Positions 37,586-55,786 of a stretch of DNA of 64,000 bases are shown here, in pieces. Made by a program: the position numbers and the translations under genes. The stretch covers positions 40,858,001 to 40,922,000 of the forward strand of contig OZ024757.1 in assembly GCA_964016885.1 (NCBI GenBank). The letters run 5' to 3'. The stretch's first letter is position 1; each line of letters begins with the position of its first letter. This DNA is from Eledone cirrhosa. Its lineage: Eukaryota. Under the pieces are notes generated by a model, which ran no database searches, was not told the origin of the DNA, and was given only the letters and a program-made list of their open reading frames with translations.

Positions 37586-37830
37586 ATAGTATATTTGGCA
37601 ATATACCGTATGATTAAATAAAAACATTTAGAAGAGCATACGCTATCTGTTTTAAAGTAGTGACTATGTCACTTACTTCTTTTCGGCGAAAGGAGGGAGA
37701 GAAGCTGACAGTCTGTTTCGCGCTGGTTGCCGTTCATCAGAGCCATGTACTCCCCTGCTTTCGCCGAAAATTATAGAAGCTAGATTCTTATAGAATTCCA
37801 GTAATAATCAGGAGTTGATTATACAGAGCG
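37586..37830 (-). mobile_element. Family H short element
   Basis: Collinear homology with 55395-55627. Confidence 0.75.
37680..37770 (-). ncRNA. Type I hammerhead motif with extended stem I, canonical core, decayed stem II
   Basis: TTTTCGGCGAAAG..ggct-CTGATGA-acggcaaccagcgc-GAAA-CAGaCTG-TC-agct..CTTTCGCCGAAAA. Confidence 0.75.
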
Positions 37831-38160
37831 ATTGCCGGTCCATAGTACAAATATTAAATATTTGCTCAACGGATTTATATACACTTTATATATATATATA
37901 TGTGTGTGTGTGTGTAGCAAAAGAATGAAGAATAACATGGTCGGCTGTACGATAAGGTTTATTTACAGTATTAACAATTGTTTAGTCCCTCTTCCTACTA
38001 TATCAACTGTTAACCTAATATATCCCTTCCATATACTGTACCGATTGATTTTATTTCTGTTTAACTTTTACTTTTACATTGTACAACTTTTACACAGGTA
38101 TGGTGTGTGTGTACATTCAGACAGCCACACACGCACACTTATATATATATATATGTACAT

Positions 38161-38225
38161 ATAGGAAAAAGTATGACCCCGACGGCAGAGCTCAAGCCGT
38201 TTCGATGGCTATTTCTGGACTACCA
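38161..38225 (-). mobile_element. Family A inverted-arm fragment
   Basis: taggaaaaagtatgaccccgacggcagagctcaagccgtttcg. Confidence 0.65.
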
Positions 38226-38310
38226 TGTACCATGTACATATATATATATATATATACACACATATATATACAGATATATATATATATATATATATATATA
38301 TATATATATA

Positions 38311-38683
38311 TTGTTATGCTTTCGGAGGGTCATGTTGCCAATAAGAAACACACGCACCAGTTGCTTTCACTTCAATTTATTTATTATAAATTAAATTCAT
38401 AAATTTAAGAATTTATAAATTTCCGGTTGGTTGGTTGGTTCCACAACCAGACGATTGTTCATATATTGTCAAAGTCCTTTCGTCACACATTCTGTGGAAC
38501 CAACCAACAACCGGAGTTTTATAAATTCTTAAATTTATAAATTCAATTTATAATAAATTGAAGTGAAAGCAACTGGTGCGTGTGTTTCTTATTGGCAACA
38601 TGACCCTCCCAAAGCATAACAACATCGGTTTCAACACACGTTTTCAGATAAAGAATCTTGCTAAACAAATTCAGAAACGAAAT
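38311..38683 (+). mobile_element. Palindromic family B element
   Basis: Arms ~38311-38444 and ~38493-38622. The spacer holds a truncated hammerhead 3' half on the minus strand (GTGAC-GAAA-GGAC-TT-tgac). Confidence 0.8.
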
Positions 38684-38844
38684 ATATATATATATATATA
38701 TATATATATATATATATATAAATATATATATATATATATATATATATATATATATATATCCTTGGAAATACCATATAAGTTATATATATATATATAAATA
38801 TAAATAACTTATAATATATATATATATATATATATATATATATA

Positions 38845-39034
38845 TAACGAAGGAAATGTGGTAAGGAACCAGGTGGACCATAACGCACCAAAGTACTCAA
38901 TACTTGAGGTAGTAGAGTGGGTAATAGGAACCAGTAAGACCCCGACAGCTGAGCTCAAGCCGTTTCGACGGCTAATTCTAGAATTAGCCGTCGAAACGGC
39001 TTGAGCTCAGCTGTCGGGGTCTTACTGGTTCCTA
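38845..39034 (-). mobile_element. Palindromic family A element
   Basis: Perfect palindrome ~38924-39034 centred on TTCTAGAA, plus the tail on the minus strand. Confidence 0.8.
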
Positions 39035-40105
39035 TATATATATATATATATATATATATATATATATAAAGAGAGAGAGAGAGAGAGAGAGAAGAGAGAG
39101 AGAGAGAGAGAGAGAGAGGAGAGAGAGAGACGTCAGTGTTGTAGTACATGTGTGTGTATATTTACACATCTGTGTGTGTGTTCATAAATCCTATTAAACC
39201 AGATAGAGTGAAATATATCTCTATTGCTGCTGACGAAACCTTCCTACCTATATTTCCTCTAAATACTACACACAGCTCACCAACGATATTCACTTACGTT
39301 TATTTATATAATTATATAGCTTATATATTATTCATTGAACATATACTAGAGAGCTGGCTGGAGATTGAAACATAACTCTGTCAAAACACACATTCAATAT
39401 CAAGTATATACCACATCCCCTCCTCTATGTATATATATATGTATATATATATATATATATATATATATATATATGTGTGTGTGTGTATGTATGTGTGTGT
39501 GTGTGGAGAGAGAGAGAGAGGGGTGAGAGGGAGGGAGATGAAAATAGATATGCAGACAAGTAGATATATAGAGAGGCAGATAGTTAAATAGATAGAAAGT
39601 TAGATAGATAGATAGATAGATAGATAGATAGATAGATAGATAGATAGATAGATAGATAGATAGATAGATAGATAGATAGATATCTCGACATGTATTGTGC
39701 CTTTTGTTTCTTTTCTTTAGTGTCTGAACGTATCTGCGAAGTCTGTATGATAGAGTTGAGTGGATTGAGGTTGGAGTGAAAGAAACCATGTTTGACATCG
39801 TACGATGTTTATCATTTCTTACCATTCTATCTAAACAACAGCAACCAGATTTACATAACTGTGGTTCTTTACAAAGCTAATAAGTTTGGCATTTTGGCTT
39901 CAGTTCGTATATATTGTTATATACATATCCATATATTTGTATATCTAATATATGATATACACACACACATATATATATATATATATATATATATATATAT
40001 ATACAGAGAGAGAGAGAGAGAGAGAGAGAGAGAGAGAGAGAGAGAGAGAGACAGACAGTATGTATATATATATATATATAAATAAACCCACACGCTTATA
40101 CCACA

Positions 40106-40274
40106 TAGAGGGTCGGATGCCATGCTTTCCAGCATAGTTACGTCCCTTAACGATCTGAGTTCAAATCCCGCTGAGGTTGACTTTGCCTTTCATCCTTACG
40201 GGGTCGATAAAATAAAGTACCAGTAATGCACTGAGTAATTGCTGGCCTTGTTCCCAAAAGTAGAAACAATTATT
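40106..40274 (+). mobile_element. Nin-type tRNA SINE
   Basis: Family core and B-box. Confidence 0.88.
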
Positions 40275-53430: not shown

Positions 53431-53451
53431 TATATATATAGTGTAAATATA

Positions 53452-53660
53452 TAATAAGAACGTAAACAAGAGAAGAAAAGTTGCCCTTCGTCAGCTGTTT
53501 ATTACAGATCATAGATGTTTCGGCGCTTAAAACAGGACATCGATATCAAGCCACGGACACGCTATAGATCGATGTCCTGTTTTAAGCGCCGAAACATCTA
53601 TGATCTATAGTAAGCAGCTGACGAAGAGCAACTTTTCTTCTCTTGTTTACGTCCCTATTA
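53452..53660. repeat. ~93 bp inverted repeat element
   Basis: Arms 53452-53544 and 53568-53660. Confidence 0.85.
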
Positions 53661-53729
53661 CATTCTTACACTTCGTTTGCAGTAATCACACAGCCTGCCT
53701 CTTTCACATAGATAACACAAATACGGTGG

Positions 53730-53849
53730 GGTAGATACCCGGTGGACCATAACGCACCAGAGTACAGCATACTTAGGGTAGTGGAGGGGGTAATATGAAA
53801 AGATTCAGGACTCCGACGGCTGAGCTCCGGCCGTTTCGACAGCTAGCTA
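53730..53849 (-). mobile_element. Family A element
   Basis: Reverse-complement homolog of 936-1060. Confidence 0.7.
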
Positions 53850-54980
53850 CGAACATATATATATATATAACCACAGTATGGAATATAAGTAGCTTAATAA
53901 ACTAGTTTTTAGAAATGTGAATAAGAAGAAATCGTGGCTGTATGAAGCAATTGTTATAATGTTATGTAGTTTTATTAAATGTTCAACGTTAGGCCTGTTT
54001 ACAAGGCCGCCATTATTGTGTGTCTTCATAAGTAGTAATCTAATTATGATCTCTACCACATCCAGCCACTATATATATACATATATATATATACATACAT
54101 ACATATATATATTTACATAGATATATATTCAGATATTTATACACACACACACACATATATATATATATATATATATATATATATATATATATATATATAT
54201 ATATATATATATATAGAGAGAGAGAGAGAGAGAGAGAGAGAGAGAGAGAGAGAGAGAGAGAGAGATACTGGTATAAATAAAGCGCTAAACATCTGCTTGA
54301 AATAGAGTAAGCATTCATTTAGTGAAAGTGAGATCTTCATTCAATTATGTTTTAATTCACTACCAATATTAACCTTCTGTTCAGTTTTACTTTAATTCAC
54401 TTTTATAATCTTTAAGAGAATTAATTTTATCATAGTCCATCATAAAATTTAATTAATATCGTAAGCGACACATTTTCATTTGCGAAATTAAATTTGCTCG
54501 TACATGATAACACAGTTTAAATAAGTTGGCTGTGAAATCTATTTTTCTACATCATGTAACTATTTAAAGAGAAACATGATAGAATAACAACTATTTTAGA
54601 AGATTCGATGAAATGTTATAAGCAGCCTCGAGGTTATTATTCTAAAAAATGTTTATGAGAATCCACAATTTGTATTCTCTCTCTACCTTATCTTCTTATT
54701 TATGAGACAGAAAAGCAAAAACTATCATTGTACATGGGATTCGAACTCAGAAATTAATGAGATGTAAAATTAATAGTAAAACATTGCAACATTTGATGAG
54801 AGGATCCCACATTTATCGTCTTTCGTCTTAATTGAAGCGAAATAAAGCAAAGTCTATCACCATGGGAATCGAACATAGGGTTTAATGAGATATAACATAA
54901 ATACCATTAACTCTTTAAAGTGTTTCACTCTCGTTTCCCTATCGTTTCTCTCACTAGCTAGAGTAATTAAACTTGGAAAA

Positions 54981-55127
54981 TATATTTGCATGTATATTAT
55001 ATAGATTAATGCAGGGGTTGTATCAGCAGAGTCGATACATATTGCAATTAATATTTGCGTATATTATATAGATTAAGGCTGGGATCAAATCGGCAGAGTC
55101 AATCAATATTGCAATCAATATTTGCAG
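54981..55127 (+). repeat. ~70 bp tandem repeat, 2 units
   Basis: atatttgc..tatattatatagattaa..gcagagtc.at..atattgcaat twice. Confidence 0.8.
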
Positions 55128-55374
55128 TCACTTCTGCCACAAACCCCCAGTAATGTGGCCTGCAATGCAGTGATAAGGAAGCTAAACAGCGACCATTGAT
55201 TGCTCCACCGTTTCCTCTAGTAAATATATGTCGATTAAATATGTATATGATGCAACACTGATTCTTTGTTCCCTAATTATTATTAATAATACTCTGCTCC
55301 CCAATAGTAATGAGTGCTCATCTTGGCATACCACTTGTTAACGCAATCCTATTGCACCCTTTAATACTATATAT

Positions 55375-55786
55375 ATATATATATATGAATGTATATATAG
55401 TGTATTTTGCAATACACTGTATGCTTAATTAAAAGCATTTCGAAGACCTTACGCAATTGTTTTAGAGTAGTGACAGTCTCACTTACTTTTAATTTTCGGC
55501 AAACAGGGGAGATAAAGCTGACAGATCTCTGTTTCGTACTGATTGGTACTTATCAAAGCCAAGTACTCCATCTGTTTGCTGAAAATCATGAATGTTTGAT
55601 TCTTATAGAATTCTAGTAATAATCAAGAACAGAGCTCTGTCAGCTTTATCTCCCCTGTTTGCTAAACATTTAAAGTAAGTGAGACTGTCACTACTCTAAA
55701 ACAATAGCGTAAGGTCTTCGAAATGCTTTTAATTAAGCACACAGTGTATTGCAAAATACACTATATATACATTCATATATATATAT
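55375..55786. mobile_element. Palindromic family H element
   Basis: ~160 bp arms 55375-55534 and 55628-55786, both running out to the same 3' end. Confidence 0.85.
55493..55585 (-). ncRNA. Type I hammerhead with extended stem I, U3-A8 core
   Basis: TTTTCaGCAAACAG..ggct-TTGATAA-GTAC caatca GTAC-GAAA-CAGA ga TCTG-TC-agct..CTGTTTGCcGAAAA. Confidence 0.8.

Follow-up and report, generated by a model that had tools for sequence, protein, structure and literature searches.

Joint changes at positions 3 and 8 in hammerhead-bearing repeats of Eledone cirrhosa, a likely family of non-LTR retrozymes

Two homologous hammerhead ribozyme motifs occur in a stretch of 64,000 nucleotides (nt) of the Eledone cirrhosa genome (contig OZ024757.1, positions 40,858,001 to 40,922,000; hereafter the window, in whose own numbering positions are given), and they differ at both members of the core pair formed by positions 3 and 8: the motif in repeat copy A (core string CTGATGA, 37740-37734) carries C3-G8 and that in copy B (TTGATAA, 55556-55550) carries U3-A8, with GGCT preceding each. 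A first-pass annotation had located both strings correctly, omitting only that they lie on the minus strand, and had read the double change as evidence of functional ribozymes under selection and as a natural within-family test of the 3-8 pair. The question raised by this locus is how far such a paired difference can sustain that conclusion. By themselves the window copies constitute weak evidence, since they represent two subfamilies and one event, for which any diagnostic site would co-vary alike; the proposal draws its support from the 12 subfamilies of the repeat to which both copies belong, among which the pair switched a second, independent time, the core is invariant and the helices covary. 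The selection concerned acted on source elements, not on the window copies.

That repeat is likely a non-long-terminal-repeat (non-LTR) retrozyme, and is a new family of an already known kind of element, retrozymes, the 3-8 pair and natural U3-A8 all being established. Its unit of 313-332 nt (~320), a length within the ~150-400 nt range for such elements, lacks an open reading frame (ORF), contains one type I hammerhead motif and is circularly permuted, such that the sequence upstream of a full copy is the unit's own 3' part again. Copies A and B each gave more than 2,000 candidates in the 3.0-Gb genome, and because the kin sets among the 40 candidates scored differ (identities in Table 1), the two copies belong to two subfamilies. 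The 285 loci analysed were picked as best hits or pattern matches rather than as a random sample, and yielded 475 de-duplicated segments, of which 150 are longer than one unit and eight longer than three; one locus (L071) is an array of about 9 units. All but four of 362 units were assigned to the 12 subfamilies, which together form a ladder (F, E, A, C2, C3, C4, C1, D, B1-B4) with U3-A8 at both ends; one distant copy, G, stands apart. In L186-L189, B3 units form a long array in tandem, and many of their cores are degenerate; this array is a candidate source locus or satellite. G, a distant relative with C3-G8, forms a tandem array of ~310-nt units in L101, and C3-G8 motifs resembling it occur in the window at 33893 (+), 53052 (-) and 61482 (-).

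At least two switches among the subfamilies

A Watson-Crick 3-8 pair is present in the consensus of all 12 subfamilies. U3-A8 is carried by F (21 of 24 distinct rows), E (32 of 33) and B, the counts for E and F being biased towards that state by retrieval with U3-A8 queries, while C3-G8 is carried by A, C2, C3, C4, C1 and D, and by the distant copy G. Subfamily E is closest to A (0.10) and distant from B (0.24). In the approximately unbiased test, a single clade for the U3-A8 subfamilies was rejected using 220 non-ribozyme columns (p-AU 2.5e-5), as was a single U3-A8 origin using 35 real copies with columns 3 and 8 removed and states assigned by subfamily (p-AU 1.3e-8); the pair therefore switched at least twice, in an unrooted direction. 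Changes on both switch branches affect seven of the 302 columns, of which only 3 and 8 split cleanly between F, E, B and A, C, D. Given two changes at position 3, the chance of matching transitions at position 8 on both branches is about 0.004-0.03, and the two matching double switches are good, not overwhelming, evidence.

The surroundings of the pair bear on the same point. Along the ladder ten core positions undergo no change and N7 undergoes four, the other ribozyme columns averaging 1.4 changes as against 0.38 outside the ribozyme. Double changes were recorded in 17 of 27 helix pairs among 25 real copies (including 4/4 in stem II, 5/6 in proximal helix I and 6/12 in the distal helix), with 92.6% paired; none of 500 shuffles reached the observed value and slid registers gave 33-46%, although relatedness inflates the result. 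Taken with the two switches, these comparisons suggest that the joint 3/8 changes likely reflect selection for cutting. The 216 columns outside the ribozyme, small palindromes included, change almost four times more slowly than the ribozyme helices, and such stretches (for example 37780-37842 and 37586-37675 in the window) may hold a promoter and a helper binding site.

Individual genome copies were surveyed with a pattern that fixed helix III and its flanks and left positions 3, 4, 7 and 8 free; it misses subfamilies E and F. It gave 2,340 matches genome-wide (reversed control, 0), comprising 1,125 C3-G8, 1,052 U3-A8, 41 C3-A8, 24 U3-G8 and, by subtraction, 98 in other states. The 3-8 pair is thus Watson-Crick in 2,177 of the 2,242 four-state matches, and the mixed states, far from being as common as the paired ones (the comparison on which the first-pass annotation had staked its proposal), numbered only 65. 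Six of the 41 C3-A8 and six of the 24 U3-G8 copies are on the B background, the rest being scattered over subfamilies on C-G backgrounds, and two of the C3-A8 copies are core deletions. At the background rates of transition measured beyond the pattern (for A/C/D, 5.3% G>A and 4.0% C>T; for B, 1.9% A>G and 0.8% T>C) about 138 mixed copies would be expected, as against the 65 observed; the 98 other states likewise stand at about half their expectation, so that in this respect the mixed states are no different from other damage to the core.

Inspection of 54 mixed-state loci identified 19 with a neighbouring motif, from which one was dropped because its neighbours were of another subfamily and one overlapping pair was merged. 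In 16 of the resulting 17 insertions the neighbour is a canonical, core-bearing motif of the same subfamily, which indicates that mixed states mostly arose after insertion; in the remaining one both motifs are C3-A8. Mixed 3/8 states therefore look like post-insertion decay. The loci L140 and L141 are a single head-to-head insertion with C3-A8 in both motifs, and may record one or more copying events from a mixed-core template. Copy counts were rejected as independent evidence on the grounds of pseudo-replication: they repeat a few masters, and the window pair A/B is accordingly one evolutionary event.

Architecture of the motif and state of the window copies

All 12 consensuses share the core N3-UGANN8-A, GAA, A15.1-U16.1 and H17, together with three helices. 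In each, the 5' strand of loop I starts with U-purine and loop II ends in A, the putative residues of a loop I-loop II contact. The first-pass annotation had associated that contact with an extended stem I, the distal arms of which do pair as it described (13/13 in copy A; 13/14 in copy B, with one A.C mismatch), but the ~20-bp (base pair) distal helix closes loop I and is not itself the contact. In all subfamilies helix III spans 9-13 nt that form a palindrome, either perfect or nearly so, with a potential of 4-5 bp. Helix I contains U.U mismatches in A, C2 and B, its proximal part being weakened in A and B, and the 10.1-11.1 pair, usually G-C, is A-U, U.U, A.A or C.A in several subfamilies. 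Among those that amplified, E, F, C3 and C4 have A.A, C.A or U.U at this position; U.U at 10.1-11.1 has been reported (PMC3088659).

Both window motifs (Table 1) follow the part order of a type I hammerhead, namely stem I, core strand, stem II, GAAA, helix III, GUC and stem I. The family pattern matches the window at these two sites only, as against none in 100 shuffles, and the predicted folding of both regions stands apart from shuffles (z about -4.3). The predicted fold of copy B is a hammerhead; that of copy A is not, because two private changes (37720 and 37730) break two of its four stem II pairs, 10.1-11.1 and 10.4-11.4, and copy A is a poor test substrate for the same reason. Neither copy reached the Rfam hammerhead threshold (best model Hammerhead_HH9, 11.2 bits for A and 16.7 for B against 52), a result attributed to decay of the copies and to Rfam having no model for this hammerhead repeat family. 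A scan of the entire window gave 270 Rfam matches; the 150 listed were all sub-threshold microRNA models on simple repeats and hairpins, and were set aside.

The double change at 3 and 8 is therefore real, although copies A and B, 77.6% identical across 237 columns, differ at 22% of positions and not at those two alone. With such divergent backgrounds and a decayed copy A, the window copies do not provide the clean within-family test that had been envisaged; consensus sister pairs are the proper test.

Table 1. Features of the two hammerhead-bearing copies and of the inverted sister of copy B (window coordinates; motif parts and cut sites are predicted).
Feature	Position	Strand	Remarks
Copy A: 5'-truncated unit (likely retrozyme), subfamily A (C3-G8)	37579..37842	-	12 mismatches/264 columns to subfamily A consensus; kin 93-95%; 3' end runs into (TG/TA)n microsatellite, no tail
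Copy A core strand C3-U4-G5-A6-U7-G8-A9	37734..37740	-	
Copy A stem II and 6-nt loop II	37720..37733	-	compared with consensus and kin
Copy A G12-A13-A14, near-palindromic helix III (9 nt), C17	37707..37719	-	
Copy A predicted cut	between 37707 and 37706	-	hammerhead numbering
Copy A stem I 5' strand	37741..37770	-	distal arm 37770-37758, loop I 5' strand, proximal helix 37746-37741
Copy A stem I 3' strand	37680..37706	-	proximal 37706-37701, distal arm 37692-37680
Copy B: 5'-truncated unit (likely retrozyme), subfamily B1 (U3-A8)	55377..55630	-	6 mismatches/254 columns to B1 consensus; kin 95-97%; 3' end in (TA)n, no tail
Copy B core strand U3-U4-G5-A6-U7-A8-A9	55550..55556	-	
Copy B intact 4-bp stem II and 6-nt loop II	55536..55549	-	
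Copy B G12-A13-A14, helix III, C17	55520..55535	-	helix III a perfect 12-nt palindrome in consensus, one change in copy B
Copy B predicted cut	between 55520 and 55519	-	
Copy B stem I 5' strand	55557..55585	-	distal arm 55585-55572, loop I, proximal helix 55562-55557
Copy B stem I 3' strand	55493..55519	-	distal arm 55506-55493, private mismatch at 55498
Inverted head-to-head sister of copy B, same insertion	55628..55814	+	95% identical to copy B; 3 mismatches to consensus; begins within helix III, without core; ~29-nt tail (55786-55814) at end, then (TA)n

Insertion signature and a proposed cycle

The 3' ends of the 475 segments fall at two sites 120-175 nt past the predicted cut, 216 lacking and 153 carrying a 26-29-nt extension and 106 lying elsewhere, and 308 segments have TA-rich 3' flanks. 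Adjacent pairs are head-to-head in 119 of 200 cases; in the 74 such pairs that were classified at both ends the tail is at exactly one end in 63, at neither in ten and at both in one, as against about 36 one-sided pairs expected if the ends were independent. Copy B and its inverted sister form a head-to-head pair of this one-sided type. Penelope-like elements and their pseudo-LTRs likewise exhibit partial tandems, an adjacent inverted and 5'-truncated copy, an optional 30-40-bp tail that is often at one end, microsatellite targets and a hammerhead (PMC8557442, PMC11167929), the tail being the stretch between two reverse-transcription start sites (PMC11167929); the tail of the present repeat is slightly shorter. 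The repeat has likely been spread by a Penelope-type retrotransposon.

A variant of the family is present in one RNA run. Although no run was catalogued as RNA, one contig of run X4 joins two exons of the ribosomal protein S6 gene with the introns uncovered, which identifies that run as spliced RNA; run X1, unlike X4, covers those introns. A further X4 contig, 126 nt long and at a depth of 398, spans the predicted cut site in a unit of B type (U3-A8); no difference is listed at 3 or 8, and two of its differences are seldom found in the DNA runs. Such a contig may stem from a circle junction, an uncut precursor or read-through.

The reading that we consider probable is a retrozyme cycle, in which subfamilies with joint 3/8 changes would produce RNA that cuts itself, is likely circularised, and is copied into (TA)n by the reverse transcriptase (RT) and endonuclease of a Penelope element. 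A tandem source would be transcribed and its hammerheads would cleave at C17. Cleavage would probably involve dimers, given the palindromic character of helix III throughout the subfamilies, and dimer cleavage has precedents (PMC4209133, PMC6155905). For ligation, the two ends of the monomer would be kept in proximity by stem I and the distal helix. A Penelope enzyme, a helper acting in trans, would prime on both target strands, at two positions separated by ~28 nt, and would then copy the circle, or else an uncut multimer, over a length of 0.2 to several units. New subfamilies would be founded by sources in which the 3-8 pair stays Watson-Crick, and inserted copies would decay.

Several observations weigh against this cycle or its premises. 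A single U3-A8 origin was not rejected by the 92 ribozyme columns alone (p-AU 0.06), although that tree has the same order, and only two switches exist, hence the chance figure given above. The unconstrained fold of the A, C, D and B consensuses differs from a hammerhead. No genomic match was found for the X4 contig variant. No RT or GIY-YIG ORF, such as Penelope-like elements possess, was found joined to the unit (285 loci scanned for ORFs, nine ORFs scanned and three neighbours read), nor any long ORF belonging to it. No excess of 5' ends was detected at the predicted cut site among the 475 segments, and in a lizard Penelope element, ribozyme mutants had no effect on insertion in vitro (PMC11167929).

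The last two points favour the view that the hammerhead fold was kept for a role other than monomer release, for instance in folding aided by protein or in the trimming of linear templates that are multimers, and that circles do not form: the lizard ribozyme, besides being dispensable for insertion, needed protein in vitro, and the contig bridging the cut fits uncut RNA as well as it fits a circle. Retrozymes of the same design in coral, mussel and axolotl nevertheless give linear and circular monomers (PMC7229834), and we regard a cycle lacking circles as unlikely. With regard to 5' ends, an apparent pile-up of eight of the 475 segments at position 1 was discounted, consisting of seven alignment artefacts in tandem arrays and one real end.

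A quite unlikely alternative treats the unit as a pseudo-LTR belonging to an autonomous Penelope-like element, which the hammerhead would serve and of which the copies would be truncated partial tandems. The tail, the inverted pairs and the (TA)n targets are all Penelope traits, and the genome contains many ORF fragments, without Pfam assignment, which we take from their motifs to be Penelope-like. Against this, the 150 of 475 copies longer than a unit continue into the unit's own 3' part and not into an ORF, the array of about nine units exists, and the ORFs beside L184 and L218 end in different terminal sequences, although coverage of 285 loci leaves room for a rare parent. The ORFs near L184, L218 and L023 were rejected as autonomous partners, as they belong to other elements or are separated from the unit by microsatellites. 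An open frame of 254 codons in the window (44750-45511, minus strand) had no Pfam hit and, judged by motif, presumably resembles a Penelope linker region.

Highly improbable is a founder effect, by which two common transitions were fixed in successive masters in the absence of catalytic selection and the covariation of helices came from templated repair of one inverted arm by the other: the commonest changes are indeed C/U and G/A transitions, the ribozyme is the fastest-changing part of the unit, there are only two events and the outside-rate test of the invariant core gave a p of only about 0.04, but the same double change occurred on two separate branches with no amplified mixed lineage, ten core positions stayed fixed inside that fast-changing region, and the short helices II and I covary while 3 and 8 are not inverted-repeat arms.

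Returning to the retrozyme cycle, the folding discrepancy deserves separate comment. The lowest-energy local fold of the A, C, D and B consensuses pairs the 5' strand of the core with helix III, whereas the E and F consensuses fold as hammerheads. This competing fold suggests a lock on the monomer that dimerisation would free, under an energy model without tertiary terms and with the C3-G8 retained by A unaccounted for. U3-A8 lowers the predicted misfold penalty by 0.3-3.2 kcal/mol in all 12 backgrounds (2.9 in B); misfolding was rejected as the cause of the switches, the effect being non-discriminating in that it extends to backgrounds that kept C3-G8. It is a doubtful further proposal that a round trip from U-A to C-G and back to U-A was coupled to such a lock from A onward, leaving monomers and circles uncut until dimerised, and that the return of U3-A8 in B offsets a stronger lock imposed by its perfect palindrome. 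On that reading the one-sided tail would, in addition, show directly at the level of insertions that Penelope enzymes use circular retrozyme RNA as a template.

Neighbouring repeats and relation to known systems

A second, unrelated hammerhead-like motif with the U3-A8 core UUGAAAA was recorded in the window at 2743 (-), 2831 (+) and 33763 (+), with a 4-bp stem II, a six-letter palindromic helix III and a local fold not above shuffles. Its copies at 2743 and 2831 form a head-to-head inverted pair, and the motif likely represents another Penelope-type family with U3-A8. Further hammerhead-like core strings in other repeat families lie at 58978 (+), where the fold is not above shuffles, 63429 (-), 62468 (-) and 50042 (-). 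Other long inverted and dispersed repeats, at 4049-4189, 56723-56832 and 38472/59215/62434, are probably more head-to-head Penelope-type insertions.

The principal repeat shares with metazoan non-LTR retrozymes a ~300-nt AT-rich unit without an ORF, one type I hammerhead, forms ranging from monomers to multimers, thousands of copies and a proposed Penelope link, such retrozymes having been argued to derive from Penelope terminal repeats (PMC7229834; bioRxiv 10.64898/2026.07.22.740005). It differs from the known examples in that most copies are dispersed, comprise 0.5-1.5 units and occur in head-to-head pairs with a one-sided Penelope tail, and in its longer helix III; no insertion signature of this kind was found described for retrozymes in the available parts of the literature searched. 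The motif resembles the full-length type I hammerhead of the Schistosoma mansoni Sm-alpha type (PMC4209133) in its 6-bp helix I, 4-bp helix II, internal loop I and conserved core, and differs from it in the variable 10.1-11.1 pair, the U.U in helix I (A, C2 and B) and the distal helix closing loop I.

The 3-8 pair itself is established (PMC3884650). Natural covariation from C3-G8 to U3-A8 has been published (PMC3088659, Perreault et al.), and about 1,300 U3-A8 hits come from one genome, in the Cercyon Penelope elements of S. mansoni (PMC4209133). The same natural replacement is seen here, but those cases are minimal motifs or scattered examples, whereas in the present family full-length motifs of both states belong to a single resolved lineage, in which the pair switched two or more times. 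No published tracing of repeated 3-8 switches in one lineage, or of this repeat family, was found, although supplements could list either.

With the pair, natural U3-A8 and retrozymes already established, the gain is incremental. Two independent compensatory 3-8 switches in one lineage nonetheless turn a two-copy anecdote into an evolutionary test, and the sister subfamilies D/B and E/A can be assayed and swapped. The insertion signature, moreover, ties an ORF-less retrozyme to Penelope enzymes, a link that the literature consulted argues from co-occurrence and homology.

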